Of a DNA stretch of 64,000 bases, positions 29,777-46,269 are shown one piece after another (within the stretch, counting starts at the first letter, position 1; every line of letters begins with the position of its first letter). Source of the DNA: Minisyncoccota bacterium. Its GTDB lineage: Bacteria; Patescibacteriota; Minisyncoccia; Phycocordibacterales; PALSA-1337. Under the pieces are notes generated by a model, which worked only from the letters and a program-made list of their open reading frames with translations, was not told the DNA's origin and did not search any database. The DNA lies in contig JAGOQK010000003.1 in NCBI GenBank assembly GCA_017991475.1, positions 848-64,847 on the forward strand, read 5' to 3'. The position numbers were made by a program, and so were the translations under genes.

Positions 29777-31123
29777 TTATAACATCGTACGAACCTGGGT
29801 AATTTCTTGGGAAAGCAACTGATCAGTCTTCATCTCTTCACGCATCTTTTCATATGAGTGAATAACAGTAGTGTGATCTCTTCCTCCAAGCTTTTCTCCA
29901 ATTGAGGGGAATGATATGCCAAAATCCTCTCTCAATATATACATAACCACCTGGCGTGGTCTCACCACCTCCTTGCGTCTCGTTTTGTTGTAGATACTAT
30001 CCTCGTCGATGTTGTAGAATTCCGATACAATCTTCACTACATCCTTCACAGACATCATTTTCTTCGGTTTTACGTTGTTTTTGAGTATATTTTTGATTTC
30101 ATTGATACTCAATTCCCTGTTTTTTAGTTGAGTTTGGCATGCAATCACGTTGATAATACCCTCTATTTCGCGGATATTATCCTCAATAGATGATGCTATG
30201 TGGTCGATAACCTCATCAGAGAGAGTGATATTGTGTGGTGCACACTTGCTACGTACGATCATGGTACGAGATTCCTGGTCGGGCTCAGGTATGTCTATGA
30301 TCATTCCTGCATTGAATCTACCCTTGAGGCGATCTTCAAGTCCAGGAATTACATTTGGGTGTTTATCTGACGAGAATACGAGCTGACGAGCGGAATCATA
30401 GAATGTATTGAAAAAGTGGAAGAGTTCTTCTTGGAACTTCTCTTTACCCGCGAAGAATTGTACATCGTCCATGATGATAACATCATATTTTCTGTACTTA
30501 TCTTTGAATAGCTGCACCTTTGCTTCTTGAATAGCGGCAAAAAGCTCAGAACCGAATCTTTCTGAGGTCAGGTAAAACACCTTTTTATCTGGAAATAGCT
30601 TCTTGATCTGGTTCCCTACAGCTTGGATCATGTGTGTCTTACCGCGACCCGTCTGTCCATATATGAACAATGGGTTGTATGACTGCCCAGGAGCCTTCAC
30701 AACACTCTGAGAGGCTGCGTGAGCGACTTCGTTGAAGGGTCCAACCACAAGAGACTCAAATGTATATCGTGGATTGAGGTTATCCTCCTTGTTGATATAG
30801 AAATCTTGTAGGGGCATGGCTAGTGTAGGCATGTTTAGAGCATCCTTTTTGGCTTGATGACCTCCCTTTCCCTCTTCTTTTATGATCACATACTCGAGGG
30901 CACGGACACGCTCGTTCATTTGGCGCAAAATACGCAAGATTGAGTTGTGAAACTTCTTTTGGAGCCATTCATGGGTAAATGAGTTTGGAACTCCGAGGTA
31001 GACTACCCCCTCATCTTCACGGAGTATCTTGATATCTTTGAACCAGGTCGAGAAGTTTGCTTGAGAGACGGCAGTCTCTATCTCTATGAGCGCAGTTTGC
31101 CACATTTTCGTAAAGTCATTCAT
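29777..31123 (-). CDS. dnaA: Chromosomal replication initiator DnaA
   Basis: AAA+ motifs (GQTGRGKTHMIQAVGN, IIMDDVQF), C-terminal DNA-binding domain (YHNITLSDEV..., GGRDHTTVIHSYEKM). Confidence 0.95.
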   Translation of the reverse strand: MNDFTKMWQTALIEIETAVSQANFSTWFKDIKILREDEGVVYLGVPNSFTHEWLQKKFHNSILRILRQMNERVRALEYVIIKEEGKGGHQAKKDALNMPTLAMPLQDFYINKEDNLNPRYTFESLVVGPFNEVAHAASQSVVKAPGQSYNPLFIYGQTGRGKTHMIQAVGNQIKKLFPDKKVFYLTSERFGSELFAAIQEAKVQLFKDKYRKYDVIIMDDVQFFAGKEKFQEELFHFFNTFYDSARQLVFSSDKHPNVIPGLEDRLKGRFNAGMIIDIPEPDQESRTMIVRSKCAPHNITLSDEVIDHIASSIEDNIREIEGIINVIACQTQLKNRELSINEIKNILKNNVKPKKMMSVKDVVKIVSEFYNIDEDSIYNKTRRKEVVRPRQVVMYILREDFGISFPSIGEKLGGRDHTTVIHSYEKMREEMKTDQLLSQEITQVRTML

Positions 31124-31208
31124 AGGATTTGGTGCCTATAAGTATATACCTGTTTATAGATTTGCAAACTTGTGGAGAATCAAAATTTATGTTGATAAGT
31201 TGGGGACA

Positions 31209-31328
31209 ACTGAAACACAGTGGTGTGCGTGTGTTTTCTCAGTGTCATGTTTATGATTGAGCACTAAGCTTAAAAAGACTGATAAAGCATGACACTGAGA
31301 AAACACACGCACACCACTGTGTTTCAGT
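31209..31328. repeat. Long perfect inverted repeat (41-bp arms, 38-nt loop), hairpin family member C, in the dnaA-rpmH intergenic region
   Basis: ACTGAAACACAGTGGTGTGCGTGTGTTTTCTCAGTGTCATG ... CATGACACTGAGAAAACACACGCACACCACTGTGTTTCAGT; loop TTTATGATTGAGCACTAAGC... Confidence 0.9.
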
Positions 31329-31383
31329 AGCAATAGTAGTAACAACTTGCGAAATTATGAGTTTTGATTTATAGTATGCACCT

Positions 31384-31518
31384 ATGTCATTCACCTATAA
31401 CCCAAACAAGCGCAAACGCGCAAAGTCGCACGGATTTCGCGTCCGCATGAAGACCGCTCCTGGCCGCAAGGTTCTTGCACGCCGTCGTGCAAAGGGTCGT
31501 TCACGCGTCGCCGTATAA
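31384..31518 (+). CDS. rpmH: 50S ribosomal protein L34
   Basis: 44-aa [47 protein letters not shown] (not in the 60-aa ORF track); canonical L34; followed by rnpA. Confidence 0.9.
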
Positions 31519-31521
31519 GCT

Positions 31522-31857
31522 ATGCTTTCTCGTTCTCAGAGAATCTCTGTTGAACAATTCAACTCCATCATGGAAAAAGGAAGGGTCTCCCACTCTTCCC
31601 TTTTTCTCATACGAGCAGTCTCAGGAAGAGACGACATTCGTATTGCTGCAGTGACACCCCAGAAAGTATTCAAAACCGCCGTTCTCCGCAATAGAGTGCG
31701 TCGCAGAATGTATGAAGCTATTCGATTTATAGCGATGAATATAAAACCCGGCACACAGGTCATCGTTTTTGCCAAGGCGGCAGCATCTGATAAGAAGCCG
31801 ATTGAGCTCGGGGCTGACATGAAAAATCTCTTTGTGAAAGCGGGTATTTTGGTGTAG
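31522..31857 (+). CDS. rnpA: RNase P protein component
   Basis: 111 aa basic protein directly after rpmH; FLIRAV...RNRVRRRMYEA motif. Confidence 0.85.
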   Translation: MLSRSQRISVEQFNSIMEKGRVSHSSLFLIRAVSGRDDIRIAAVTPQKVFKTAVLRNRVRRRMYEAIRFIAMNIKPGTQVIVFAKAAASDKKPIELGADMKNLFVKAGILV

Positions 31858-31858
31858 T

Positions 31859-32596
31859 ATGAGCTTTATGTACAATGAACTTATTTTTCGCCCCCTTTAT
31901 AACGGCCTTGTGGGTATCATGGACCTCGTGCCCTGGATCGATGTGGGCATCGCAGTTATCATATTTACGGTGATAGTTAAGCTCATACTCTACCCTCTTT
32001 CAAAATCCTCCCTTCTTACTCAAGTGAAAATGAAGGAGGTTGAGCCTGATGCCGCGAAGATTCGTGCTCAATATAGCTCTGATAAGCAGACCCAGGCACT
32101 CAAGATTATGGAGCTCTACAAGTCGCGAGGAGTCAAGCCTTTTGCGGGAATATTACTCGTGCTCATACAACTCCCTATCCTTTTTGCGATCATCTCCGTT
32201 TTCTATAAGATCATTCCAGAGATTCGTCCAGAATATCTCTATAGCTTCGTCTCCATTCCTGTGGTTAAGACACACTTCCTTGGTCTCATAGATCTCACAC
32301 AAAAGAGTCTTATATTGTCGTTGATTACCGCAGGAATCCAGTATTTTCAACTCAAGTATTCACTCGCTTCGCGCCCTACCGCTCCTTCAGATGCAAGTGA
32401 TACTGCAAGCCAGATATCGAACTCCATGAACAAGCAGATGAAATATTTGCTCCCTATTCTCGCCTTCGCGTCGACATATTGGCTCATCCCTGCCCAGTTC
32501 CCTCAGGCAGCAGCTATCATCGCGGTGTACTGGTCAGTAAGCACTCTGTTTACTCTCGGACAAGAGCTTTATATTCGCAAGAAACACATCAAGTAA
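31859..32596 (+). CDS. yidC: YidC/Oxa1-family membrane protein insertase (short form)
   Basis: 245 aa, 5 TM; conserved ...MELYKSRGVKPFAGILLVLIQLPILFAI... region; canonical position after rnpA. Confidence 0.85.
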   Translation: MSFMYNELIFRPLYNGLVGIMDLVPWIDVGIAVIIFTVIVKLILYPLSKSSLLTQVKMKEVEPDAAKIRAQYSSDKQTQALKIMELYKSRGVKPFAGILLVLIQLPILFAIISVFYKIIPEIRPEYLYSFVSIPVVKTHFLGLIDLTQKSLILSLITAGIQYFQLKYSLASRPTAPSDASDTASQISNSMNKQMKYLLPILAFASTYWLIPAQFPQAAAIIAVYWSVSTLFTLGQELYIRKKHIK

Positions 32597-32632: not shown

Positions 32633-33958
32633 CTAATTACTTGAAATCAAATCCAGAGACCATAACGATAAGTCATTCTTGTTCATGAAGAACAGAAAGT
32701 CGTCTTTTTGATCGAGTCCGAGGTTGAAGGCGTCAATGATGCGATTTGAAGTATCTATGATGGAAGATAGGAGTTTGATCTCTCCTGTCACACCATTGAT
32801 CTGCCATATCTTGTCGACCGTAGAAACAGTTCCCGCATACCAATCATCAGGATACACTCCATCTACCGGCTGTGCGGGCGTCGCACAGTAGACCATCTCC
32901 TTGTAGAAATTACCCCAAACGCACTTATCTGCAAGTGTCCTCACGATAGCATCTATCCCCTTTTTGTCAGCGACTGTATATACGCTGGTGAGCACATTCT
33001 TGTTACTGCCCGTGGTGGAGACGATGACACGCTTAGCATCAGAACTTACGCGCGTGCTTATACCTGCGAGTGGCCCGAGTATTTTGTTCCAGACGCCAGT
33101 CTTTGCATTGACGAAATAGAGGTATCCACCCTCAGTGGCAGTCCCCCTGGTAGTGAGAGCTATTGTATTCTCCTCTGGCCACTCGGCATTGAGTTGAGTG
33201 AGGGGTGTACTGAATATCTGAGTCACTGATTTACCGTCGAATGTAGAAACATACCCCGTACCCATCCCGTTCTCATTTACAAGCATGAAAAGTTTATCTT
33301 TCTTTGGCGATGCCGCGTAGGTGATGATGTTTTCAGGAAGATTCTTGCCCTTGAGCTCATATGGGGTGATTGTTTGACCATCGGCCCCTACACCGAGGCT
33401 TTGCGGAGGGGTGCTGCTTGCTGAGGTGCTCGTGGCGACTTTGGGAAGTATGCGAGCCTTGATATCTGCATAAACCGAGCTTATCGAGGTTTCCGCTTCG
33501 TCGAGGCTCGAGGCTATGAATGCGCTCGCATCCTTGTTCCACACACTCTGATATATCCTCGGTACGACGGTGTTCGATAGTGTCGTGACAGCGAGAGTGT
33601 CTCCCTTGGTTTCGTAGATATTGCCACGCCCACGATCCACCCAGCGGATGACTGTGGTACTAGCGGTCGTACTTGCAGCATATCCACCGACGGGGGTGGC
33701 GCTTAGGAGGCGAAGTGCAGGTATCTTGGCTGGAGTTGTGGTATCGGTAGTTGTTGAAGTCACAGGAGTAGTTCCACCACCGGCATTCTGCTGACCCCCA
33801 CCAGTTGGCGGTCTACCAAAAGGCTGAAATCCTCCCTGCTGGTCACCCGAATTCGACCCCTGCCCTGTCGTATCAGCCGGCATGCGCATGAAGAAATACC
33901 AATACGCCGCGCCAGCGATTATCAGAAGTATGAGGAGTATGGGGAGGATTTTTTTCAT
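32633..33958 (-). CDS. Secreted or anchored hypothetical protein (N-terminal TM, Thr/Gly-rich linker, large C-terminal domain)
   Basis: Last gene of the minus-strand block that contains the VirB4/VirB6-like genes. Confidence 0.45.
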   Translation of the reverse strand: MKKILPILLILLIIAGAAYWYFFMRMPADTTGQGSNSGDQQGGFQPFGRPPTGGGQQNAGGGTTPVTSTTTDTTTPAKIPALRLLSATPVGGYAASTTASTTVIRWVDRGRGNIYETKGDTLAVTTLSNTVVPRIYQSVWNKDASAFIASSLDEAETSISSVYADIKARILPKVATSTSASSTPPQSLGVGADGQTITPYELKGKNLPENIITYAASPKKDKLFMLVNENGMGTGYVSTFDGKSVTQIFSTPLTQLNAEWPEENTIALTTRGTATEGGYLYFVNAKTGVWNKILGPLAGISTRVSSDAKRVIVSTTGSNKNVLTSVYTVADKKGIDAIVRTLADKCVWGNFYKEMVYCATPAQPVDGVYPDDWYAGTVSTVDKIWQINGVTGEIKLLSSIIDTSNRIIDAFNLGLDQKDDFLFFMNKNDLSLWSLDLISSN

Positions 33959-33960
33959 AC

Positions 33961-35394
33961 TTAAAGAGTTAAACTTCCTGAGGGGGTGTCATACACGTTG
34001 GGAATAGGCTGAATTATTTTATCAGTACCATCTCCTTTGCCACCAAAAGCTTTTATTATTTCGTAGGCTTGCTCTTTGAACTTTGCTCGTGAATCAGGAT
34101 CCTTGATCGTTTTGTTTGCTTCAACTCTATTTATTTCCTCCTGTATATCAGATATTGCCCGGTTTGCGCTTTCTTGATTTACATCACGAGCAATACCTTT
34201 CCCGACGACAGAAGCAACGGCGGTGCCGGCAATATATCCTACACCCGCCCCAACTCCACCTCCAGTTCCCGCCCCAACAATAACAGCCCCACTCGCTATC
34301 GTGGCTTGCAGGGTCTCGATGGTGGCTATGCCATAAGGATTCCACGAAGTCGCATGTCCAATTGTTGAATAAATTTTAGACATTGACTTTGAATATGCAG
34401 CAAAATCCTGTAGTTCAGCTATAGATTGCGTCTGGCCATTTTCCTGCAATAGCCTCGTATATTTGGCGAGATGCTCATCGATTTTTTGTGCGCATTCAGC
34501 GGGCGACATCTTTGATTGGCCGCCGACTACATTGCCACAATCCTGCATTGCGATATTCATCATACCGACCCCTGTGTTCAACTCGATAGTTCCAGTAAGT
34601 TCCAATTCTTGGTTTTTATTATCAGTGATTTGAACACACAAATCCTCCTCCTCCGAGGTCAAATCAGTATCTGAACATCGATCCAAAATCTGCGCTTCAG
34701 ATGATACGCCAAGTATACCCTCGGCTTCTGAAATGAGAATAGCCCGTTCACTCCTCAAGGATTTAATAGATTCACCGAGTGCATTATTTGCGCGCCTCAG
34801 ATTGGTTACCCTATCTTTCAATGTTGCCATATCGCTCGCGAGCGTATCTGCGGCAGTCTTGGATAATTGACTGAAAAAACTAACTGTCGCACCCTTCTCA
34901 TATTTAATATCAAGCGGCTTTACAAGCGTCGAAGGGATATCAACAAGACGAGGATCTATGGTTCTCAGGATCAAATACGAACAGAGCACCAACAAAAGTC
35001 CCTGGAGTGCTTGGAAAATCATCTTTTTACCTTCATTTTTTCCCAGGAATGAGTCAGTGGTTACATACTTGAATCCTCCGGCGACAATAACGAGTACTGC
35101 GGCGACTGCAGAGAGGGCGATGATAAGGTTGAAGATGTAGCGCACATAGTCACCAAAATTCACCTTCTCTACCAGCGTGTTTTCTGCACATTTTTGAGTT
35201 CCGTCATTGAGACAAGGCAGGGGCTCTAGAAGCGTATAGGTTGCAACAGGATTGTCTTGAGGGTTGCTTGAAGTATTTGCGGCAGTGTCAGCATGAGTGA
35301 TCGAGGGGGTGACGAGCATGCCGACAGCGATGAAGATTGTAAAGACGGATCCTGCGATGGTTAATAATATGTTTTTGTTCATAGATGTATTCAT
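33961..35394 (-). CDS. VirB2/TrbC-like (signal peptide + two-TM hairpin) protein fused to a long coiled-coil/Gly-zipper C-terminal region
   Basis: Signal peptide, then TM pair (YIFNLIIALSAVAAVLVIVAGGF ... MIFQALQGLLLVLCSYLILRTI) as in T4SS pilins, then about 330 extra residues including GAGTGGGVGAGVGYIAGTAVASVVG. Confidence 0.4.
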   Translation of the reverse strand: MNTSMNKNILLTIAGSVFTIFIAVGMLVTPSITHADTAANTSSNPQDNPVATYTLLEPLPCLNDGTQKCAENTLVEKVNFGDYVRYIFNLIIALSAVAAVLVIVAGGFKYVTTDSFLGKNEGKKMIFQALQGLLLVLCSYLILRTIDPRLVDIPSTLVKPLDIKYEKGATVSFFSQLSKTAADTLASDMATLKDRVTNLRRANNALGESIKSLRSERAILISEAEGILGVSSEAQILDRCSDTDLTSEEEDLCVQITDNKNQELELTGTIELNTGVGMMNIAMQDCGNVVGGQSKMSPAECAQKIDEHLAKYTRLLQENGQTQSIAELQDFAAYSKSMSKIYSTIGHATSWNPYGIATIETLQATIASGAVIVGAGTGGGVGAGVGYIAGTAVASVVGKGIARDVNQESANRAISDIQEEINRVEANKTIKDPDSRAKFKEQAYEIIKAFGGKGDGTDKIIQPIPNVYDTPSGSLTL

Positions 35395-35401
35395 GGCTAT
35401 A

Positions 35402-36463
35402 TTAGAATGTTACTTCATTCTCTGTTGCTGTATCACCGCTGAATGATGCTGAAAATCCCCCGCTCGCACCTTGTAGAATCTTGTCAGTGTTTCTGATATC
35501 GAGGCGTATGTTGGATGTACCTGCAGATCCCTCGGGTGCGCGTAATACTACTGACTGACTTGATGAAAGCTCGGTACGCTTCACGCTGTTGATGAGCCAT
35601 GTCAGCGCGAGATTTCCGATACCATCTGCTGGTTTATTGAAGCCAAATGGTACCGCGAGCACAGAGGTCTCCTTTTCAGAACCAATGCGCACCGTATTTT
35701 TTACTGCTTTGTTAAAGAAAGTGCCATAGAGCGGGTCGGTAACATAGAAGCCTATTGAAGGACTTGTTGCAGCTATGGATATGCTCCCTTGGCCCTGTGC
35801 TGCACTATCGCGCGCAGCTACAGACACAGTCACATCGTAGGGTCGTGGGACGATATCTCCAGCGAGATAGATGGATTGTTTACCGTATCCTGACTGGTTT
35901 TGGAGCACTGTACTCCCTTTCTTCCACGTGTATACGAGTGTTTTCGGATCGTACTCTGTGCCACTCGCTGTGGCGAGATGTGGAACAGCGATTATTTTGA
36001 CTATATTCTGATAACGCGGCGATATCTTGCCCAAGAAAAGTGGATGAACATAACCATCAGATTCGACGAGCATGTCTATAGAGCTGGCTGTTATAGTGAT
36101 CGAATCAGACATACTCGTGCCGATAGTTGGACGAGCAGTTATCGAAACTACAAGCGACTTTCCGAGCTCAGGCGCAATGACTTTAACCGTTTTCAAACCG
36201 ACACCGCTCTGGACAGCTTTACCATTTATAGACCACGATACGGTAGACGAATCGATATCGATTGAATAACTCTTGAGGGTGATAGTTACTTCCTGTCCTG
36301 GGTATGGGTTGGGCGAAGATGTTTCGATGACGAGCCCGCTTATACCGGCTGGTATCGCTTGGGCGAATAGGTATGAGGTATGAGGTGTGAGGCATGAAGC
36401 AAAAAACACAAAACAAAATAGCAGTACTACTATGGATGAGAAATGAGAAAAACGAGAGTTCAT
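35402..36463 (-). CDS. Secreted hypothetical protein (signal peptide; beta-rich, Ig-like repeats likely)
   Basis: Start placed at MNSRFSHFSSIVVLLFCFVFFAS signal peptide; within the T4SS-like block. Confidence 0.5.
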   Translation of the reverse strand: MNSRFSHFSSIVVLLFCFVFFASCLTPHTSYLFAQAIPAGISGLVIETSSPNPYPGQEVTITLKSYSIDIDSSTVSWSINGKAVQSGVGLKTVKVIAPELGKSLVVSITARPTIGTSMSDSITITASSIDMLVESDGYVHPLFLGKISPRYQNIVKIIAVPHLATASGTEYDPKTLVYTWKKGSTVLQNQSGYGKQSIYLAGDIVPRPYDVTVSVAARDSAAQGQGSISIAATSPSIGFYVTDPLYGTFFNKAVKNTVRIGSEKETSVLAVPFGFNKPADGIGNLALTWLINSVKRTELSSSQSVVLRAPEGSAGTSNIRLDIRNTDKILQGASGGFSASFSGDTATENEVTF

Positions 36464-36518
36464 TGACTCTATTTTAGCAATATTATGAGCTATATGCGAT
36501 GAAAAATGTGTATAGGTA

Positions 36519-36953
36519 TCAGTTTTTGAGGCCCCCATTTGGAGGTCGAGTACCGCCCTGGTTCAAAGGTTGCTGTTTTTGGGCTGCTCTGCGCACACCT
36601 CCACTATTGAGGTGTGGTCCGCTAGATAGTGATCCCACAGAGATACCAGTTTTATCCTCGATACGAGTAGTGACCACTATGATAATCATAGCCAAAGTGA
36701 TGGTGGGAAGTGCTTGGATGGCAGGAATGATTTCAGCGATAGCGGAGACACCGCTTGCCGCCAGCCTTTTGCCATTCATGAATCCGAATCCAGACTTGAA
36801 CAAGTATATATTAATGAGGACCCAATAGGTTGGCCCCACAATGATGCCAACAATAGGTATGAGGGTCAGAAGGTCAGCAATGATAGCGGAACCTATAAGC
36901 AGAGCTGCTGCTTTGTTGCTGATACGATTTTTCTTGCCAGATTCTTGTTCCAT
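36519..36953 (-). CDS. Small polytopic membrane protein (3 TM) with Gly-rich C-terminus
   Basis: ORF in the T4SS-like block, directly downstream of hairpin D. Confidence 0.45.
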   Translation of the reverse strand: MEQESGKKNRISNKAAALLIGSAIIADLLTLIPIVGIIVGPTYWVLINIYLFKSGFGFMNGKRLAASGVSAIAEIIPAIQALPTITLAMIIIVVTTRIEDKTGISVGSLSSGPHLNSGGVRRAAQKQQPLNQGGTRPPNGGLKN

Positions 36954-36971
36954 AAGTTCATTATAGCAGAA

Positions 36972-37093
36972 GAGCCCTCATGTACGCGGTACGCATGTTT
37001 TGTGCATGTCATGTTTAGGATTGAACACTAGAAATAATGTTACCTACTAAGCATGACATGCACAAAACATGCGTACCGCGTACATGAGGGCTC
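36972..37093. repeat. Long perfect inverted repeat (42-bp arms, 38-nt loop), hairpin family member D, inside the T4SS-like gene block between the VirB4-like gene and the next gene
   Basis: GAGCCCTCATGTACGCGGTACGCATGTTTTGTGCATGTCATG ... CATGACATGCACAAAACATGCGTACCGCGTACATGAGGGCTC; loop TTTAGGATTGAACACTAGAAATAATGTTACCTACTAAG. Confidence 0.9.
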
Positions 37094-37104
37094 GTACCTC
37101 AATA

Positions 37105-38916
37105 TTACCCAGCCTGTTCCAGATCCTTCTTCGCCTGTTGAATACTCAAAACTTGAGCAGGATTGGTCGTGATGATCTGATCCTCGGTATATGATGCAAC
37201 GATCTTGATGGCGACGTGCTTGAGACCCACGAAGAATATACCCTCCCCCACATCTGATTCGAGCAAGAGGTACTTCTCTTCATCAGTCAGGTTAAATGTT
37301 TTCTGGATATGGTCGATGACTGTAGGAGACTGTTTGAGGAGTATTTGGATCGATGAGTTGGTTACGATAGGCAATCCATATGGTGAATTCAAGAAATCAT
37401 CCACGTCCTGGGTGATGGTAGCAAGTCCAAGGAAGTACTTGCGGCCGCGCTTGGCAAGGCTGAACAAGAATGAAGCTGTATCTTCAGACTTCATCATCCA
37501 CCACGCCTCGTCGATGACGAGCAGGCGCTTCTTGAGATTCTTGCGGATAGCATTCCAGATATAGTGAGTGACGATATACATAGCCACTGGCTTGAGTTCA
37601 TCTTCCATATCACGGAGCGAGAACACGGCAAATTTCTTGTTGATGTCGATGTTGGATGGCCTGTTGATGAAGCCTGACCATGTTCCTTTGGTGTACTTTG
37701 AGAGCCTCTGCACAAGCGATTCGCCGCCCTCCATTCCTGCAAGCACCAGCTCGAAGTCGGATAGGAGCGGTGGCTCAACGGTGCGGAAATCAGCCTCGGG
37801 CGTGATGTCTTTCAAGGCATAGGTCTCAGTGATGGCGCGATCGATGATAGCGTCTTCTTCTTGTGTGAGGCCTCCGAGCATGATGCGGAATAGTCCGACG
37901 AGGTTGATGATGTTCGAACGGAGTACATCAGCGCCAGATTCGTCCTCGCGTGGTATCGGGAGATCAAATGGGTTGATGTGGTGCTCAGAGTTGAGTGAGA
38001 TATTGAAGTACTTCCCTCCCGTAGCTTCTGCCATGTATTCGTACTCCTTCTCTGGATCGATGACGATAACATCCACATCGAACATGAGTGTTCGGAGGAT
38101 CTCAAGCTTAGTGTTGTAGGACTTTCCAGCACCGGCCACTGCGAATGTCACTGAGTTGTAGTTTTCAAGCGAGTAGCGATCAAAGAGAACAAGTGATGAG
38201 TTGTGACGATTGATACCGTAGAGGATACCCTTGTCTGAGGTGAGATCAAATGAAACGAATGGGAAAAGTGACGAGAGTGGCGAAGAGTTGAGCTTGGAGT
38301 GCACTGCGAGCTGGTCATCCGCGATAGGAATAACAGATTTGAATCCCTGCTCCTGCTGGAAGAGAGCTGGCTTCACATAGATGAGTTTGGATTCGAGGAT
38401 AGACTTGATCTCTGATTCGAGCTTATCGAGCTCGCCTTCGTTATCAGCGAATAGGGTGATATAAACACCGACGTCGAAGAGATGTTCCTGTGCCTGCATG
38501 AGTTGGTCGCGGAGCTGCTCGAGATCTTGGTATGCGGTATCGAGCGCTGGATCACGGACAAGGCCTTTCTCTTCCCTGTGTGAAATCTGACTTTGAACCT
38601 CAGCAACCTTCTTCTGGAAATGCCTCAAAATTTTTGCAGTATCGACGGGGTGTATGAATATCGAAATATTGAATATTTTGTCGAGATTGATGATCGGTGC
38701 AAACCAGCTCTCGTCAAGGAAGCGAGGGTATGAGATCACGAAAAGTGTGCGACCGACTTTCTCACCAAGATTGATCTCCTTTGGGCTTACCTTGAGTGCA
38801 GACGGCGAAATGACATCCTTGAGTTCTAGGACACCAGCCTGATAGATCTCTTCTGGCAGGATAGAGACAATAGGAGATGATTCTTTTTTGCCGAATAGTT
38901 TGTTGAGGAATGACAT
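37105..38916 (-). CDS. virB4: VirB4/TraC/CagE-family type IV secretion ATPase (Gram-positive-type, about 600 aa)
   Basis: Walker A SVTFAVAGAGKSYNTK, VIDPEKEYEYMAEATGGKYFNI, Walker B LLVIDEAWWMM, C-terminal LATITQDVDDF. Confidence 0.8.
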   Translation of the reverse strand: MSFLNKLFGKKESSPIVSILPEEIYQAGVLELKDVISPSALKVSPKEINLGEKVGRTLFVISYPRFLDESWFAPIINLDKIFNISIFIHPVDTAKILRHFQKKVAEVQSQISHREEKGLVRDPALDTAYQDLEQLRDQLMQAQEHLFDVGVYITLFADNEGELDKLESEIKSILESKLIYVKPALFQQEQGFKSVIPIADDQLAVHSKLNSSPLSSLFPFVSFDLTSDKGILYGINRHNSSLVLFDRYSLENYNSVTFAVAGAGKSYNTKLEILRTLMFDVDVIVIDPEKEYEYMAEATGGKYFNISLNSEHHINPFDLPIPREDESGADVLRSNIINLVGLFRIMLGGLTQEEDAIIDRAITETYALKDITPEADFRTVEPPLLSDFELVLAGMEGGESLVQRLSKYTKGTWSGFINRPSNIDINKKFAVFSLRDMEDELKPVAMYIVTHYIWNAIRKNLKKRLLVIDEAWWMMKSEDTASFLFSLAKRGRKYFLGLATITQDVDDFLNSPYGLPIVTNSSIQILLKQSPTVIDHIQKTFNLTDEEKYLLLESDVGEGIFFVGLKHVAIKIVASYTEDQIITTNPAQVLSIQQAKKDLEQAG

Positions 38917-38920
38917 AGTC

Positions 38921-39562
38921 TTATGTTATCTGTATCGGCTTCTCCGTTTCGCCTGGGTTAAACAGTTTATAGAACAATTCTACCACCTCTTCTGTCCCAA
39001 GCTCCGCTGCGCGGACACCACAACGTACGAGCCCTTGCTCTACCACGGCGACGCGCTGTTCGAGCTGGCTGCGGTATTCTTGGAACTTCGCATCAGTACT
39101 TTCCGCAGTCGCCTTACCTGCTCCCTTCCCCGGGAACATGCCTGCCAGAGGATTCTTGCCCCCACTCACGATCGGTGGATCGTACGGTATGACGACGAAG
39201 AAACTCTTGGACATGATGTTTGTGCTCTCGACGAAGGTTTTGATAAATTCGATGTACTCACGAACTTGGATCTTCATGAGCTCGGTGATCTGTTCCTTGT
39301 AGCGATCTTCGAGGAGGGCTATATACGGTCTGATGTCGAGTTTTTTTGATTGAACGAATATCTGTATAGAAAAATCGAGCGAGTTCACAAAATTCTGGAA
39401 TTGCATGAGGATAGAGCTCTGTTCATCCTGTGATTTGAGGGCGAAGTTGAGAGATGAGGCGAGCACGACCGCGCGCATGCCGCCATTTTTGAGAATAACG
39501 ACCCCGTCCCGAATCTCTTGAATCGGTATGAATCCTTGGGTTGTCGATTGTTTAGGAGCCAT
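38921..39562 (-). CDS. Hypothetical protein resembling the N-terminal domain of Gram-positive VirB4-like ATPases; a possible split VirB4 N-domain or accessory protein
   Basis: FIPIQEIRDGVVILKNGGMRAVVLASSLNFALKSQDEQSSILMQFQNFVNSL resembles N-termini of Tn916 Orf16 / PrgJ-type proteins as recalled; separated from virB4 by only 4 nt. Confidence 0.4.
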   Translation of the reverse strand: MAPKQSTTQGFIPIQEIRDGVVILKNGGMRAVVLASSLNFALKSQDEQSSILMQFQNFVNSLDFSIQIFVQSKKLDIRPYIALLEDRYKEQITELMKIQVREYIEFIKTFVESTNIMSKSFFVVIPYDPPIVSGGKNPLAGMFPGKGAGKATAESTDAKFQEYRSQLEQRVAVVEQGLVRCGVRAAELGTEEVVELFYKLFNPGETEKPIQIT

Positions 39563-39993
39563 TACTTTTGGTTTTTATTTGAATACATGCTCTCCTTGAT
39601 ATCGAGGCTCCAACTCAAGTCCTTGAGTTTGCTATCGGAAATTTTAGGAACCATAATCGAGGCGTAATTTTTGATATCAGCGACAGGAGACTTCTCGGTT
39701 TGTGCGACCTTGTCCTCCTTCTTCCAGATATAGAGCTTGCCCCCGAGCCAGTATTTGAATGCAGCTTCGACAATAGCGACGAATGGCTTGTTATTGATCC
39801 TGTAGAATGCGAGTGCCGCAGATATTGCCATGACGATAATGATAGGAACGATCGCCAACGTGAAGCTGCCCAAGAGCACATACAGCAAAAATGATAAGCC
39901 TCCCCCACCAGCGAGATATATGAACTGTTTCAGGGTGAGAGGACCAAAGATTTTGTCCTCAACCTCGATGAATTGGGGAACTTGATAGCGCAT
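39562..39993 (-). CDS. PrgI/VirB3-like small membrane protein
   Basis: 143 aa, N-terminal IEVEDKIFGPLTLKQFIYLAGGGG then two TM helices; sits immediately upstream of the VirB4-like genes as PrgI-family proteins do. Confidence 0.55.
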   Translation of the reverse strand: MRYQVPQFIEVEDKIFGPLTLKQFIYLAGGGGLSFLLYVLLGSFTLAIVPIIIVMAISAALAFYRINNKPFVAIVEAAFKYWLGGKLYIWKKEDKVAQTEKSPVADIKNYASIMVPKISDSKLKDLSWSLDIKESMYSNKNQK

Positions 39994-40049
39994 TACAGTA
40001 TATTATAACCCAATTACGCACATTTATATATGTGCAAATAGAATTCGTT

Positions 40050-40781
40050 TTAACTTACCATTTCCCTATAGGGGTCAGGTCCAGCTTTCTTGGGTTGTGG
40101 AGGTGGTGTCTTCGGGGTTTCTGGGGCTGTAGGTGTTTGTATGGGGCTTTGAGTAGTTCTTTGGGGAGCTGATGGTCGGGTCGGCACTGACTGTACAGGC
40201 GTCTCCAAGGGCGTTTCCTCGACTACAGGCAAATTGCTTGGAGCAGGCGCCTCATGATGAGGTTTGGGTGCGAGTTGCCCGACTGAATTCTGGAGAAGAT
40301 GATCAACGAGCGGCTCAGTGTGATTGTCTGAAGACGATTTTGAGTAGGCACCCTTCGGAACAGGTGGATTCTCTAGGTGTTCAAGTATCTGACTTCTATC
40401 TGCTGCACTTACCTTGGATTCAGTTGCAACCCTCTCTTTCTCAATACTGAAACCACCGACCTTTTCAATGTTTGCAACTGAGGCAGCATTCTCTTCTACT
40501 GTAGTTTGCGCCTGGATTTGTTCCTTGAGCGTCTGGAATACAGCCGCATTGACCTCGGCGACGATCTTCTCCGCGAGTCCCCGGTCGATCTCGAGGCGTT
40601 GCATGATGTGCTTGATGAAGTCTCCCGACTCGCTGACGCCATTGAGTATGTCGCGTATCTCAGCATCAAGTTCCCCTACTTGGTCGATGAGGAGGCCGAA
40701 TTTCGCGCCGATAGCTTCCGAACGGTCGTAGAGTTCGGCTGAGTCAGCGAGCTTTTTGAATTCTGGGGGTGTTTGGTGCAT
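40050..40781 (-). CDS. Hypothetical protein with Pro/Thr-rich C-terminal tail
   Basis: ORF only; in the T4SS-like block. Confidence 0.45.
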   Translation of the reverse strand: MHQTPPEFKKLADSAELYDRSEAIGAKFGLLIDQVGELDAEIRDILNGVSESGDFIKHIMQRLEIDRGLAEKIVAEVNAAVFQTLKEQIQAQTTVEENAASVANIEKVGGFSIEKERVATESKVSAADRSQILEHLENPPVPKGAYSKSSSDNHTEPLVDHLLQNSVGQLAPKPHHEAPAPSNLPVVEETPLETPVQSVPTRPSAPQRTTQSPIQTPTAPETPKTPPPQPKKAGPDPYREMVS

Positions 40782-40795
40782 GTGAGTAATAATAA

Positions 40796-42712
40796 TTAAG
40801 CAGGGTTATATGTTACTCCGTTTAAGGTTATACTTGCCTTGAGCCAATCACCATGGTTCTTAGGTTTACTCATCCAACCGAAGGCGCTGTGCTCACTGCC
40901 ACCAGAAGTCGTTTTCCAATCGAGAATACTTCTTGCAATAGCATCTTTTGTTTCCTTAGATACTTTACTGTCACCAATTTTCTTAAGACGATCGATGGAA
41001 AGATGTTCAAGTAGCCCTGGGTTTGCCAGCAATGATTCATCTTCGACAATACTGTCAATATCCATATCCTTTACCATCTGCTTGACGACCTCCTTGTCGC
41101 CCGTAGTCACTGCGCTTGAGAACGCATCCTTACGCGCGGTCTTGAGTGTGCTTATATCCTCAGGTTTGAAATCTTCCGATTTCTCAATAGCTTCAATGTC
41201 TGATTTTTGGAGATGCTTCATAACCTGAGGATTTTTCAAGACATCCTTCCCAAGAGCAAGCTTCTCGTCTTTGCTCATAAGTTTAATAATAGCCTTGTAT
41301 TCATCAGATGATTTAGAGTCGGAAGCGATAAGATTTTTGATTTGAGTTACCCTATCCATCTGTGTTTGCTTCTTTGCAACATCCTTCAGCTCCTTTCTGG
41401 TCTCATCATAACTTCGTGGACCCCCAAACTTACTCTTTGCAACTTGTCCTATTGTTGCAGAGCGAATATCTCTACCGAGCAGACTGTTGCCGATGCGAGT
41501 ATTGGAGAGGTATTTATCTGTTTTTGATGCCGCCATTCCAAAAGTTTTGCCACCTGCCCAACCGCTAACACCCTTCCAGATTGCTCCCGCCCCTACACCC
41601 TCTGCCCACTTTGGCATCATTGCTCCCACACTGATAGCCGCAAGAAGTGGCGCGTTGAGCATGATAATAACAATCGAGGCATTGATACCGAGGATCATGT
41701 AGTTCGCCCACCAGTACTCGCCTGCCGACTGATTCGTGGCAAATCCGGCTTGGAACAAGTTGCTTGAGGTCAGGATGCTCAACGCGAAATACATGAGCAA
41801 CAAATACACTGGCATGAAGAGGAGCTGACTCTTGTAGGTATCAGTCCATTTATTGGCGTATGTTTTTAGGTCAGGCACTGCGAATGACGCGAACCATATC
41901 GGGGAGAATCCAAGCAAGAGAAGCAACACAACGAAGCGTACGATGAAGGCAAGCGCTGCGAGGAAGAAGCTTGCTGCAGCGGTGAGCATGACGACGATGC
42001 CAAATACACCACCAAGGATAATCTGTGTGGATGCGTGAAAAGTTCCTGGTGTTCCCCCTGCCCCCGACGGATTGAGGGCCGCAGTTTTGGCATCATAGAA
42101 ATTGCTGATCTTGAGCGATTTCATGAATATGTCGGAGAGTCCGCCGTCTGCAAATCGTGTTTCGAGATTCGCACCATTCCCCACAAGCTGATCATAGTTG
42201 AGGTTACTTGCAGGCGCAATAGTGTTGTAGAGCTGCATCGATACTACATTTGAGACGTCGATACCGAGTCCTGCAGCGAAGAAACTGAAGTTTATGAGCA
42301 CTCCAGCGACTACGACCGTCTTGATGAGGTTTCCTGCGCTCGGTCCGGGGACGCCGATCGGTGCCAAGATCATCTTGAGTGCTGCGAAGACGAGGGTGAA
42401 TATGAGGAACATGCCGGATATGTCTCGTATCGATTTCCAAACCGCGTATATCGCTGGAGTACCTTCAAGGAACTCTTTGATGTTGAGTGTCAGGTTTATC
42501 GACATATTGAGCAGCGATCCGGCAAGCGCGAGGATCCAGGCGGATATGGTCAGAAGGTTGTTGACGATTTCGGCGAAGAATCCAGTGACGAAGTCATGGA
42601 AGGTATATCCGAAGAGTGGTGCGTCTGCTGCCTGCGCCACATGCCCAAATCCTCCCACGAGTATCGTGATGAGGATGAGAGTTGCTGTTATGTGAGGCAA
42701 GTAGCGTTTCAT
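40796..42712 (-). CDS. VirB6/TrbL-like polytopic inner-membrane protein with C-terminal charged cytoplasmic extension
   Basis: Signal peptide plus about 8 TM helices across the first 400 aa, then a long K/D/E-rich tail; size and topology match T4SS VirB6-like channel proteins; adjacent to PrgI and VirB4. Confidence 0.55.
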   Translation of the reverse strand: MKRYLPHITATLILITILVGGFGHVAQAADAPLFGYTFHDFVTGFFAEIVNNLLTISAWILALAGSLLNMSINLTLNIKEFLEGTPAIYAVWKSIRDISGMFLIFTLVFAALKMILAPIGVPGPSAGNLIKTVVVAGVLINFSFFAAGLGIDVSNVVSMQLYNTIAPASNLNYDQLVGNGANLETRFADGGLSDIFMKSLKISNFYDAKTAALNPSGAGGTPGTFHASTQIILGGVFGIVVMLTAAASFFLAALAFIVRFVVLLLLLGFSPIWFASFAVPDLKTYANKWTDTYKSQLLFMPVYLLLMYFALSILTSSNLFQAGFATNQSAGEYWWANYMILGINASIVIIMLNAPLLAAISVGAMMPKWAEGVGAGAIWKGVSGWAGGKTFGMAASKTDKYLSNTRIGNSLLGRDIRSATIGQVAKSKFGGPRSYDETRKELKDVAKKQTQMDRVTQIKNLIASDSKSSDEYKAIIKLMSKDEKLALGKDVLKNPQVMKHLQKSDIEAIEKSEDFKPEDISTLKTARKDAFSSAVTTGDKEVVKQMVKDMDIDSIVEDESLLANPGLLEHLSIDRLKKIGDSKVSKETKDAIARSILDWKTTSGGSEHSAFGWMSKPKNHGDWLKASITLNGVTYNPA

Positions 42713-42733
42713 GAATCTATAGGGGTTGAATGA

Positions 42734-44344
42734 TTATCGTGAGGATGAGTTGGCAGAGCTTTTGAGCGAGCGGCAGATATTCATGTATTGTTCAGCGCTT
42801 GTGTTGAACTGAGCTGCCTTCGCCTGTGCCTCAGCGAGATCGGTTGCGCCATTATCCCTCCCCTGCTGTATTCCCGGCAGGTTGGAAGCGATGAATTCCT
42901 GAAGCTGGTTCGATGCTTCTTGGGCGCTCTGCGCGTCCGAGATATTCTGGGCAGATCGGATGCGAGATCCGATCAGGCTGATAGTTGTATTGGCAGCATC
43001 GCGCTTGGTGCTGTATACCAGCGCAGCGGGCGCGACTTGGTTGATGAGGATCACCTGAATTGCATCGGCGTTACGCTGGGCTTCGCTTATCGCCGAAGAT
43101 CGTGTTCCTGTGACGGTGATATCCTGGAAACACCCTTGTGCGATAGAGAAATTGCTGCGGGCTGTGTCGAACGCGCTGACTGCTTGCTGATAAGTAGCAG
43201 CGACTGATTGGGCCTCGCTCAGGTAAGTAGCATAGCTCGACTGGACGTTCTGCGCAGAGTTCGAGTATGCACCCGCTCCTCTTGACTGCGCATTGAGCTG
43301 ATCAATATATGACTGTGTCTGCCCTCCTGTTCTTCGGGTGGTTCCTCCGAGACCCTGTGTGAAGACTTGCGATATGAGCTGCGCGAACAGGGCGCTCGAG
43401 ATCTCGTTGATAGAGTCTGCGAGGTTGAGTTGGTCGACACTCGAACCCAAACTCTTATTGAGACCTGCACCAATGACTGAACCAGGAGTCTGCACTGAAC
43501 AAGTTTTGTATTCCATGTATCCCGTTTCCTCGTCTCTGACCGCTTTGTATTTCGATCCATTCGCGGAGGTTACGCTGCCGGTATTGTTGAGCTGTACGAG
43601 ATCTCTCTGATCGAGGCCGAGACTTGCTCCACCTGTTCCATTGGCGTCGACTACTGCGGTAGTACAGTTTTCCCACGACAAGAATCCTTGCCCCCTATTG
43701 AGATCATTGTTAACTTTTTGTTCCTTTCCGAATATCTGTGCTTCGAGATCACTCTTGGCTTGAAGGTATGATCCGTATGGATTGTTCTGCGGTTCGCTGG
43801 TCATAGCTATGAATGCTGGCCACCCTCCTTGTGAAAAGTCGCCCGAGGTGAATCCCTCGATGCTGTAGCCGTTGATGCTCGCATTCTGCGCGTTGCCGAT
43901 GATTGTTTCGAGTGTACAGCGGTACCGTTCGCTCATAGAGCTCGTTTGGCCGAGGGCAAGGGAGAGTCTAAGGTCGATATTCCAGGGCGAACAGAGATTT
44001 TGAAGCGGGCCCACATTTGCGATGAAGTTGCCCGTGATCTCATCACCAAGGTCGAGGAAGAATGCCTCCGGGTTGTCGATGAATGCAGGACTTCCCTCGA
44101 ATCCCGTGTTGATCCAGTTGACGATGCTCGTTGTGAGTTGCTGGAGAGTCATTTTAGCGACATTCCATGCGAGCGAGTTGAGCACGAAGTCCTTGGTTTG
44201 CTGCTGGATGCTATGCCAGTTGAAAAGTGTGTCTATCGGCACCGCCCCAACAGCATGGGCTCTCGACGGCGCAAGAGTCGCCCCGGAAATAGCGAAGATG
44301 CCAACAATGAGTGCGAGAGTGGTTTTTGAAATTCGAGTATTCAT
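42734..44344 (-). CDS. Large secreted hypothetical protein (signal peptide, Gln/Ser/Ala-rich C-terminal half)
   Basis: Signal peptide MNTRISKTTLALIVGIFAISGATLAPSRAHA; no known domain recognised. Confidence 0.5.
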   Translation of the reverse strand: MNTRISKTTLALIVGIFAISGATLAPSRAHAVGAVPIDTLFNWHSIQQQTKDFVLNSLAWNVAKMTLQQLTTSIVNWINTGFEGSPAFIDNPEAFFLDLGDEITGNFIANVGPLQNLCSPWNIDLRLSLALGQTSSMSERYRCTLETIIGNAQNASINGYSIEGFTSGDFSQGGWPAFIAMTSEPQNNPYGSYLQAKSDLEAQIFGKEQKVNNDLNRGQGFLSWENCTTAVVDANGTGGASLGLDQRDLVQLNNTGSVTSANGSKYKAVRDEETGYMEYKTCSVQTPGSVIGAGLNKSLGSSVDQLNLADSINEISSALFAQLISQVFTQGLGGTTRRTGGQTQSYIDQLNAQSRGAGAYSNSAQNVQSSYATYLSEAQSVAATYQQAVSAFDTARSNFSIAQGCFQDITVTGTRSSAISEAQRNADAIQVILINQVAPAALVYSTKRDAANTTISLIGSRIRSAQNISDAQSAQEASNQLQEFIASNLPGIQQGRDNGATDLAEAQAKAAQFNTSAEQYMNICRSLKSSANSSSR

Positions 44345-44349
44345 AGTTT

Positions 44350-45273
44350 TTATTGTAATTGTGAAAAGAGTGATCCAGGCTCTGTTGACGCAAAGGCGAT
44401 TCCCGCTAAGGCGAAGTATGACTTTATGCTCTTGAGCGAAGTTAGAAGATTGCTTTGGATGGCAGTATATGCGCTTACTGATACCATCGTCTGCATCGGA
44501 TCATGTTCGACGCCCCGAATATCACGAGAAATTTTTGCCATACCAGATACTGCATTTAGAAGATCTACATGATAGGGAGCGAGAGGTTGTGGGACAGGCG
44601 TACCCTTGAGCTGGGTCGCTATCGTCTCGTATGAAGATACTACAGGGTCAATCTGCATGAGAAGCTTCATGTCCCCCTTTTCCAATGCGTCATTTGCGAT
44701 GACGGCTGGATCGGCGTCGACTCCGTATGTCGAAAATGTAAATCCGACAGCATTTCCATACTCCTTGACGTTGGTCGCGGTAGCTTCTGCGATGATTGAA
44801 ATATCAGCCACGGTAAATGCCTTGGGTTGTTCTGCTGCGCGCGCAGCGTTGTATATCGATTGATTCAATGTGTCTGTAACGAACGGCTGGTTCTCGATGA
44901 GATTGCTCTGCTTGAGCTGTATATAGCGAGCGAAGAAATCCCTGCCGAATTGATCAGTGAGGGTCAAATCTTCTAACGATGTTGATGGTACGGCAGTGCG
45001 GGTAGGTGCGGCTGGCTTCTCAAGAAAACTCAACCTCCAATCAGTCGTAGATGCTGAGGTCTCGTTTGTTTTTTGCGTAGAAACAACATCGATGGAACTC
45101 GCTGGGATCGATCCGGACGATGCTTTCTCGGTGGGTTGACCTGACTTTGCGTATATAAATACGCCTCCAACGGCCAGGACGCACAGTATCGCAATCAAGG
45201 CAGTCTGTTTGTGAGGGTAATAGCTCGCCATATCACTACAAGTATAGCAGAAAATCAATAGATTCTCGGCCAT
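44350..45273 (-). CDS. Membrane-anchored hypothetical protein
   Basis: Single N-terminal TM (ALIAILCVLAVGGVFIY), extracellular remainder. Confidence 0.45.
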   Translation of the reverse strand: MAENLLIFCYTCSDMASYYPHKQTALIAILCVLAVGGVFIYAKSGQPTEKASSGSIPASSIDVVSTQKTNETSASTTDWRLSFLEKPAAPTRTAVPSTSLEDLTLTDQFGRDFFARYIQLKQSNLIENQPFVTDTLNQSIYNAARAAEQPKAFTVADISIIAEATATNVKEYGNAVGFTFSTYGVDADPAVIANDALEKGDMKLLMQIDPVVSSYETIATQLKGTPVPQPLAPYHVDLLNAVSGMAKISRDIRGVEHDPMQTMVSVSAYTAIQSNLLTSLKSIKSYFALAGIAFASTEPGSLFSQLQ

Positions 45274-45297
45274 ATCTGTGGACAGGCAGCATTATTT

Positions 45298-46269
45298 CTA
45301 CTTCGATGTTCCGATCTGGGTGATGGTTCCGCTCGGACTACCTTCCGCAGTACAGTCTTCACCATGATATACCAGACATGTCCCCCCTGAAGTGTAGTTT
45401 CCGAGTACATTTTGACCAACACCGTTGATATTCGCTTCTCGATAAAGCATGCTAGCACCGGGTTGGAAGATGAGAGAGATCGGCTGTCCGCGGACATCCT
45501 CGATATCGAGCATGCTCGATGCGCTGCAGGTACATTGGGTCACGCGGCTTACACGACCGCCGAACTCCATGAGCGCTCCTCCACCCCCTCCACCAAATCC
45601 AGGGATACCACCTCCGCCGCTACTTCCGCCCGCTCCAGGCAGGAAGTTTCCGAGCGTAGCCCCTGTTGTTCCGTTAGGGCTCATACCATAGAGGATGTCA
45701 TATACTTGCTGGCCGACATCGCCGAGGAGTTGTGTCCAACCAAGACCACTTATATAACCGAAAACTTCCTTGTCGAGCTCTCGAAATGTCATGTCATCAC
45801 CCTGTGCCGAAGGTTGAGTTGTGGTGCGAGTACTCGTCGAATAGGTGTATACGGGCTGATAGTACGCACCATTTGAATAAATAGGAACCGAAACACCTCC
45901 TGAATCTATGCTATAAGTTGTTGGTGTAGTTCGCTCAGGAACCGACGGTATATTGAAAGTTTGAGTCGGCGTGTTTGTATAGAATGATGACTGGACGGCG
46001 GGGGCTGAGTTGATAATCTCAGGTTCCCTGGGTTTTTCAATGGGGGTTTCGAGTGTTGGAATATAAGTGTAAGGATCTTCGGGCGCGCGCGTATCGACCA
46101 CGCGATCTACAGGGCGGTCAAATGGAGAGAATGTTGCATCGTCGAGCGCGATTTGGGGGGTGGTTTCTTGTGGTCTGAGCCAGTAGAGGAGGAATGCAGC
46201 AGTGAGCAGGATCAAGAGAAGGATGAGTATGGTGGCAATAAGTTTTTTGTGTCCTTCTTCTTGATTCAT
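45298..46269 (-). CDS. Membrane-anchored hypothetical protein with Thr/Pro-rich region and Gly-rich stretch
   Basis: N-terminal TM (LIATILILLLILLTAAFLLY); first gene of the minus-strand block. Confidence 0.45.
   Translation of the reverse strand: MNQEEGHKKLIATILILLLILLTAAFLLYWLRPQETTPQIALDDATFSPFDRPVDRVVDTRAPEDPYTYIPTLETPIEKPREPEIINSAPAVQSSFYTNTPTQTFNIPSVPERTTPTTYSIDSGGVSVPIYSNGAYYQPVYTYSTSTRTTTQPSAQGDDMTFRELDKEVFGYISGLGWTQLLGDVGQQVYDILYGMSPNGTTGATLGNFLPGAGGSSGGGGIPGFGGGGGGALMEFGGRVSRVTQCTCSASSMLDIEDVRGQPISLIFQPGASMLYREANINGVGQNVLGNYTSGGTCLVYHGEDCTAEGSPSGTITQIGTSK

Follow-up and report, generated by a model that had tools for sequence, protein, structure and literature searches.

Two open reading frames (ORFs) are adjacent in the genome of a Minisyncoccota bacterium, an ultra-small member of the Patescibacteria: one encodes a 603-aa ATPase that belongs to a type IV secretion system (T4SS), and the other, directly upstream, a 213-aa protein. 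The question was whether they are one VirB4 made in two pieces, a single virB4 gene disrupted by a frameshift, or an ATPase gene with a distinct accessory gene beside it. These three options had been left side by side by an earlier, sequence-only reading of this DNA. The whole stretch that was analyzed, referred to here as the window, comprises 64,000 nt of assembly GCA_017991475.1 (contig JAGOQK010000003.1, 848 to 64,847 of the forward strand), and coordinates are window positions unless a locus of a relative is named (Table 1). The data showed that the ORFs encode complementary stretches of a single VirB4, and that taken together they cover the whole VirB4 architecture, an N-terminal domain (NTD) followed by a C-terminal ATPase domain (CTD). 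Very probably, the pair specifies a single VirB4, the T4SS signature ATPase, in the form of two polypeptides.

First, the arrangement of the genes was read from the sequence. On the minus strand the gene order is prgI (VirB3-like), trsD-like and virB4, with minimal or overlapping junctions. The first gene of this trio, prgI, encodes a 143-aa protein that matched the Pfam PrgI family PF12666 (E 4.3e-13; 50 bits, cutoff 27) and has a hydrophobic stretch at residues 24-67, and its TAA overlaps the ATG of the 213-aa ORF (TAATG). The junction between the 213-aa and 603-aa ORFs reads ATA ACA TAA GACT ATG TCA; the two ORFs are in different frames and their starts are 646 nt apart. The ORF list and the junction sequence both agreed with the distance of 4 nt given in the earlier reading.

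The 603-aa protein is a VirB4-type T4SS ATPase. It passed the cutoff of the NCBIfam model NF045971 (VirB4-like conjugal transfer ATPase, CD1110 family) with 365.8 bits against 325, covering positions 180-733 of 752, and it covered positions 292-893 of the 894 positions of the mollicute VirB4 model (Mbov_0397 family). The scores for TIGR00929 VirB4_CagE (115 against 643) and for the TraC-F-type model (174 against 567) were below the cutoffs. A Pfam P-loop_TraG match (8.7e-25) was also found, and residues 228-583 aligned with PDB 4AG5, the C-terminal ATPase domain of Thermoanaerobacter VirB4 (E 9e-39). The Walker A and Walker B motifs are intact, and a hydropathy scan of the protein gave no transmembrane-like segment. 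As is required of a VirB4/TraC-type protein, it is encoded with T4SS membrane components, with the PrgI-family ORF directly upstream in the trio and this synteny kept in relatives. Residues 228-583 form the ATPase CTD, and residues from about 1 to 227 form the second half of the NTD. The complete NTD of about 400 residues is not on this chain; the first 180-290 or so profile positions are missing from it and are present on the 213-aa ORF. The earlier description of the ATPase as short for a VirB4 was therefore correct, since full-length profiles have 752-894 positions and the match starts at 180 or 292.

The 213-aa protein, deposited as a 'hypothetical protein', was also analyzed by profile, sequence and fold searches. 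It has no hydrophobic segment, with a maximum Kyte-Doolittle 19-residue mean of 1.24, as expected from its earlier description as lacking a transmembrane segment. Four models were matched, all at N-terminal positions: the NCBIfam model VirB4_plasma of Mbov_0397 VirB4 (positions 100-233 of 894, E 3.5e-10), the CD1110 VirB4 model (positions 2-105 of 752, E 8.4e-5), the TrbE model (positions 53-200 of 852, E 1.7e-3) and, far below its cutoff, the TrsD/TraD model NF041427 (positions 13-142 of 201, E 2.3e-5). The first two of these bear out the resemblance of its N-terminus to the start of Gram-positive VirB4 proteins that had been noticed by eye. In a BLASTP search, residues 12-204 aligned with residues 16-206 of an 858-aa fused VirB4 of the Myxococcus plasmid pYRE (E 3e-11). 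AlphaFold2, given 98 diverse homologues, yielded a model with a predicted local distance difference test (pLDDT) score of 87, and in a Foldseek search of this model against the PDB the top 14 matches were all R388 TrwK/VirB4 chains (probability 1.0, E about 2e-4), with the next match only at E 0.2.

Two blank results could be taken to mean that the 213-aa protein shares no ancestry with VirB4 and resembles its N-terminus by chance. The PDB sequence search with this protein returned nothing significant (best E 0.54, a mitoribosomal protein), so that in the PDB VirB4 was found by the fold search only, and a Pfam scan gave no match. The Pfam scan was blank because the copy used does not contain the PF26593 model, which it also misses on the fused patescibacterial protein P0156 described below, and not because the protein is an orphan: PF26593 'TraC-like' is precomputed, with no score given, for the 100% identical protein P0001 and for all of the 120 top homologues. 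Against a chance resemblance stand this family assignment, four independent VirB4/TrbE/TrsD profile matches all at N-terminal positions, the alignment with the fused pYRE VirB4, and fold matches that are exclusive to VirB4. An unrelated origin is thus barely conceivable.

The matches of the two proteins to full-length VirB4 were then compared. On the CD1110 profile the 213-aa protein occupies positions 2-105 and the 603-aa protein positions 180-733, and on the Mbov_0397 profile they occupy 100-233 and 292-893; in both cases the two are colinear and do not overlap. The same order was seen in fused proteins, the 213-aa protein corresponding to residues 16-206 and the 603-aa protein to residues 327-750 of the pYRE VirB4 (858 aa), and to residues 5-215 and 225-796 of P0156, respectively. 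Alignment to full-length VirB4 proteins, which had been proposed as a check of the split reading, therefore gave colinear and non-overlapping coverage. Neither result that would have spoken against that reading was obtained: the family of the 213-aa protein is not an unrelated one, and the first 180-290 or so profile positions are absent from the 603-aa protein.

Within the NTD, the register was taken from the ATPase part. The aligned ATPase stretch that includes Walker A begins with position 448 of the fused-family profile opposite TrwK residue 446, and the TrwK NTD comprises residues 15-400 (PMC9259494). Because the ATPase register agrees and the NTD ends at residue 400, the first 215 or so residues cover roughly the N-proximal half of the TrwK NTD; this placing rests on profile coordinates and the ATPase register rather than on a residue-level structural alignment, as the Foldseek results carry no target coordinates. 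Judged from these alignments, the 213-aa protein represents roughly the first half of the VirB4 NTD, and the 603-aa protein roughly the second half together with the ATPase domain.

We also considered that the 213-aa protein could be a paralogous copy of the part of the NTD that the 603-aa protein retains, or that the NTD could be an internal duplication. The profile of the TrsD-like family was compared by hhalign with the second NTD half retained by the 603-aa protein. The probability was 0.2%, and both ideas were rejected. Since hhalign found no similarity, the 213-aa protein is the missing piece and not a second copy.

The fused protein P0156 (797 aa) is encoded between prgI and a yidC-rnpA-dnaA-dnaN block of another patescibacterium. 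Its residues 5-215 are 47% identical to the 213-aa protein and its residues 225-796 are 56% identical to the 603-aa ATPase. The AlphaFold model of P0156 (pLDDT 77) matched full-length TrwK over about 800 aligned columns (E 9e-27, TMq 0.61, TMt 0.60). The cut between the parts that correspond to the 213-aa and 603-aa proteins falls in a linker of lower confidence, with pLDDT values of 60-69 around residues 210-230 of the model. The complementary colinear mapping, the fold that matched VirB4 exclusively and the superposition of the fused homologue on TrwK together uphold the suggestion of a split VirB4.

The possibility that a single virB4 gene was broken by a frameshift at the 4-nt spacer, either by a sequencing or assembly error or by a recent pseudogenizing mutation, was examined in relatives. 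The ORFs are merely 4 nt apart and in different frames, full-length fused genes exist in other Patescibacteria, and assembly artefacts do make false splits, as two 600-aa calls from the fused clade described below demonstrate. In a scan of one genome per species, 308 relatives were found and 80 were kept, and both genes were present in 79. Two separate genes were found in all of these 79 species genomes. The distance from the stop of the small gene to the virB4 ATG varied from -7 to +194 nt with one outlier apart (L063) and was 13 nt or less in 58 of the 79; the relative frame of the two genes was +1 in 33, +2 in 27 and 0 in 19; and the virB4 ATG was conserved in 77. Upstream of the TrsD-like gene, prgI was present in 79 of the 80 related loci. 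Identity to the window proteins was 86-99% for the ATPase, 71-94% for the small protein and 63-87% for PrgI, and a 213-aa protein identical to that of the window is known from independent sources. Because the gaps vary, all three frames occur, and the proteins and the ATG are conserved, sequencing error and recent pseudogenization are ruled out as the cause of the split, and a broken gene in the window itself is very improbable. The split is an old and stable trait of the lineage, not a sequencing or mutational accident.

Two further observations were made on these relatives. In L063 (6001-6745), the TrsD-like gene is interrupted by an in-frame stop after about 28 codons and virB4 is intact, which may be a sequencing error or a rare gene loss. 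Many of the metagenome-assembled genomes among loci L003-L080, with TrsD-like proteins 72-91% identical to that of the window, are labelled 'uncultured Candidatus Saccharibacteria bacterium' (third-party annotation, TPA, assemblies). Equally close relatives are labelled Parcubacteria, Taylorbacteria or Paceibacterota, and the Saccharibacteria label looks generic or wrong.

Whether the two ORFs are fused in related genomes had also been raised, and the answer depends on the lineage. None of the 79 relatives has a fused gene. In contrast, a search with P0156 showed that 118 of the best 120 clusters are proteins of 775-807 aa that carry PF26593 'TraC-like' and ATPase domains, and the fused form is the rule in this sister lineage, labelled Candidatus Colwellbacteria, whose fused VirB4s lie on contigs of up to 644 kb. 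Two VirB4s of 600 aa, P0289 and P0385, were nested among the fused proteins and would have indicated recurrent recent fission; however, both loci have a 100-N scaffold gap inside the fused gene, and recurrent fission was rejected. When these two artefacts are set aside from the best 120 clusters, the Colwellbacteria-like clade is fused in 118 of 118 and the relatives of the window in 0 of 79. The fused or split state looks fixed in each lineage.

Standalone forms dominated the searches with the 213-aa protein. About 8000 homologues were found at E<=1e-3, and each of the best 120 was a standalone protein of 210-235 aa. When 1.84 billion representatives were searched exhaustively, 2,328 relatives were obtained, and the best 150 of these were nearly all standalone (146-443 aa), one being the 797-aa P0156. 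Some standalone TrsD-like homologues (P0153, P0194 and P0216) are 356-443 aa long and have the conserved domain of about 210 aa followed by a long low-complexity tail rich in Pro, Ala, Gln and Thr. In some lineages, then, the C-terminus freed by the split has been extended.

The pairing of a small protein with a short ATPase has been described before. In a study of Patescibacteria by Quiñonero-Coronel et al. (2025, Microb Genom, PMC12102498), TrsD homologues are described as remotely similar to the N-terminal portion of VirB4 and as the most abundant T4SS component beside virB4, often near dnaA. With the MPF_FATA TrsD profile (CONJScan/MacSyFinder), 2,272 TrsD homologues were counted there in Patescibacteria, 1,664 of them beside virB4. 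According to the same study, the TrsD homologue of Southlakia epibionticum is essential, and patescibacterial virB4 loci are close to dnaA, rnpA and ksgA. The literature also states that no relaxase is found in most of the T4SS clusters of Patescibacteria. Southlakia epibionticum, one cultivated species, needs the T4SS itself, encoded by SEML1_0006-0019 (Wang et al., 2023, PMC10633639), for epibiotic growth. Guglielmini et al. (2014, PMC4027160) do not use the string 'TrsD' in their main text, and the likeness of TrsD to the VirB4 N-terminus is cited here from PMC12102498. The 'TraD' of the pELF plasmid paper (PMC13492992) was set aside, as it is a VirD4-like protein and irrelevant to TrsD/TraD.

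The window locus is of the same phylum and neighbourhood as the chromosomal T4SS loci of that study, with PrgI/VirB3, a TrsD homologue and VirB4 near dnaA, rnpA and ksgA (PMC12102498), and nothing substantive differs in it, the range of identity of the 213-aa protein given above being that in 80 Paceibacteria-type species genomes. It is a chromosomal, origin-proximal T4SS typical of Patescibacteria. The TrsD/TraD and TrsE/TraE pairs of pGO1/pSK41/pIP501-type systems (MPF_FATA, pGO1 subclass) likewise have a small soluble protein directly upstream of a short VirB4-like ATPase, a trait that the 213-aa protein shares. However, those systems are plasmid-borne conjugation machines with a relaxase and a coupling protein, whereas the system in the window is chromosomal and lies beside the replication origin. 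The order prgI, small protein, ATPase was also found split on Firmicutes plasmids, namely on Geobacillus pGspE55-1 (318 and 636 aa), on C. botulinum pCBG (257 aa, annotated as 'TraC family protein', and 620 aa) and on a Halobacillus plasmid (345 aa, annotated as 'TrsD', and 622 aa). Full-length VirB4 proteins (R388 TrwK, PDB 7O41/8RTD; the CD1110 family; the Colwellbacteria type of 775-807 aa) have the same overall NTD and ATPase CTD as the two proteins of the window taken together, with the PrgI/VirB3 gene just upstream, but are one chain, whereas that of the window is cut at about residue 215. VirB3-VirB4 fusion proteins, which exist in some conjugative systems (PMC12102498), show that VirB3, VirB4-N and VirB4-ATPase modules join or separate at the gene level, although they represent the opposite direction (fusion rather than fission) at a different junction, and the window contains none.

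The split arrangement of VirB4 is thus already known at the family level, as TrsD/TraD upstream of a VirB4-like ATPase in pGO1-type systems and in Patescibacteria (PMC12102498), and the finding is a correct rediscovery. Two small additions were not seen stated in the available portion of that article: the complementarity, that is, the adjacent VirB4 lacking exactly the region of the small protein, and the lineage-fixed fused and split states in Patescibacteria. They do not amount to a new kind of system.

If the two polypeptides work as one VirB4, the overlapping stop and start codons and the 4-nt spacer would allow translationally coupled and roughly equimolar synthesis of the trio. The 213-aa subunit would dock on the 603-aa subunit and rebuild the complete NTD, by which the ATPase hexamer would be tethered to the translocon and to PrgI/VirB3 as its membrane anchor. 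Docking and tethering are proposed because of the analogy with the R388 structure, in which the central VirB4 has its NTD wrapped by VirB3 and the VirB4-VirB4 dimer contact is made through the NTDs (PMC9259494). Three observations weigh against a single VirB4 in two pieces. The 4-nt spacer before virB4 contains no obvious Shine-Dalgarno sequence, and translational coupling would be deduced from the gene junctions. The score of the 213-aa protein for NF041427 was 24.3 bits against a cutoff of 200 bits, so that by NCBI's criterion it is not a member of that family, and staphylococcal TrsD is only remotely related. The tailed standalone homologues, together with the TrsD homologues of Gracilibacteria that are not beside virB4 (PMC12102498), hint that the small protein may act on its own.

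The last point bears on the option of a distinct accessory protein, under which the 213-aa protein would be an independent accessory or adaptor derived from the VirB4 N-terminus, for example a regulator or a substoichiometric docking factor, and would no longer simply complete the ATPase. Besides the tails and the unlinked genes of Gracilibacteria, its having a gene of its own across wide evolutionary distances, on Firmicutes plasmids as well as in many Patescibacteria, fits such a role. However, the 603-aa partner lacks exactly the region that the small protein supplies, in the sister clade a short linker is all that separates the two parts of a single chain, the model of the fused P0156 superposes on a complete VirB4, and relatives keep the gene order and the tight junctions. 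The evidence favours a split VirB4, and an independent accessory protein is unlikely.

A related idea is that the cut site is not arbitrary. The VirB4 NTD may consist of two separable modules on a flexible linker. Were the split functional rather than neutral, the stoichiometry or timing of a free TrsD-like module could be set independently of the ATPase, for example by capping just a subset of the VirB4 protomers or by gating the docking of the ATPase onto PrgI/VirB3. Such independent control would be a regulatory layer unknown in the T4SSs studied so far; the idea as a whole is tentative and improbable.

With the two ORFs read as parts of one VirB4, the main use of the result, and little beyond it, is correct annotation: the 'hypothetical protein' is to be read as a VirB4 N-terminal module (TrsD-like). 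VirB4 phylogenies and structure predictions in these organisms should use both proteins together, and functional work on the T4SS of Patescibacteria should take PrgI, the TrsD-like protein and VirB4 to be a single unit of assembly. That fused and split forms are each stable within a clade provides a natural experiment on the need for covalent attachment of the N-terminal module.

Table 1. Features of the window and of two loci of relatives (positions are those of the window unless a locus is named)
Feature	Position	Strand	Basis or remark
prgI / VirB3-like small membrane protein, 143 aa	39562..39993	-	Pfam PrgI PF12666
TrsD-like / 'TraC-like' (PF26593) protein, 213 aa	38921..39562	-	putative N-proximal half of VirB4 NTD, separate soluble polypeptide
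Spacer GACT, 4 nt, between TrsD-like TAA and virB4 ATG	38917..38920	-	read from sequence; frame changes here
VirB4-type T4SS ATPase, 603 aa, without first part of NTD	37105..38916	-	NCBIfam, Pfam and PDB matches
Walker A AVAGAGKS, residues 259-266 of 603-aa protein	38119..38142	-	translation and alignment numbering; aligns with KPGAGKS of 4AG5
Walker B-like LLVIDE, residues 465-470 of 603-aa protein	37507..37524	-	motif scan; aligns with VLVVDE of 4AG5
Gene cluster for envelope proteins, most of which resist annotation	32633..46269	-	ORF list; taken as rest of T4SS locus, extent inferred
dnaA	29777-31123	-	by eye from translation
rnpA	31522-31857	+	by eye from translation
yidC	31859-32596	+	by eye from translation
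477-aa protein	33961-35394	-	weak, below-cutoff Pfam T4SS_pilin match, E 0.006
144-aa protein directly downstream of virB4	36519-36953	-	hydrophobic residues 14-99; no family match
ORFs without significant Pfam match	40796-42712, 42734-44344, 44350-45273, 45298-46269, 40050-40781, 35402-36538, 32633-33958	-	Pfam scan
ksgA/RrnaAD	46291-47112	-	other flank of cluster
UvrD/PcrA-type helicase	47112-49247	-	other flank of cluster
LysM + M23 peptidase protein, 356 aa	49546-50616	+	about 3 kb from cluster, opposite strand
Scaffold-gap artefact locus L086	1282-3470 (L086)		100 N inside fused virB4
Scaffold-gap artefact locus L087	1362-3858 (L087)		100 N inside fused virB4

The rest of the minus-strand cluster was also examined. 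Replication-origin and housekeeping genes flank it on both sides, with dnaA, rnpA and yidC at 29777-32596 and ksgA and the helicase at 46291-49247. Seven sizeable ORFs of the cluster had no significant match in the Pfam scan, and the T4SS_pilin hint in the 477-aa protein was the sole Pfam indication in the rest of the cluster. This protein and the 144-aa protein, the ORF of which overlaps the next ORF (35402-36538) by 20 nt at its 3' end, may be the VirB2-like pilins that have been reported for patescibacterial T4SS loci. The 638-aa polytopic membrane protein (40796-42712), hydrophobic-rich by eye, is a candidate for the VirB6-like channel subunit. Several of the other ORFs without a Pfam match have N-terminal signal- or anchor-like segments and Ser/Thr/Pro-rich regions.

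The cumulative GC skew reaches its minimum around 34-36 kb, and a stretch of 37% GC lies at 28-30 kb beside dnaA. Matches to the DnaA-box consensus were not enriched across the window (12 against 14.6 expected); four of them lie within about 200 nt of the dnaA ends. Beyond the other flank of the cluster, a protein with LysM and M23 peptidase domains is encoded, and PMC12102498 states that peptidoglycan hydrolases of the LysM/M23 type may replace VirB1 in Patescibacteria.

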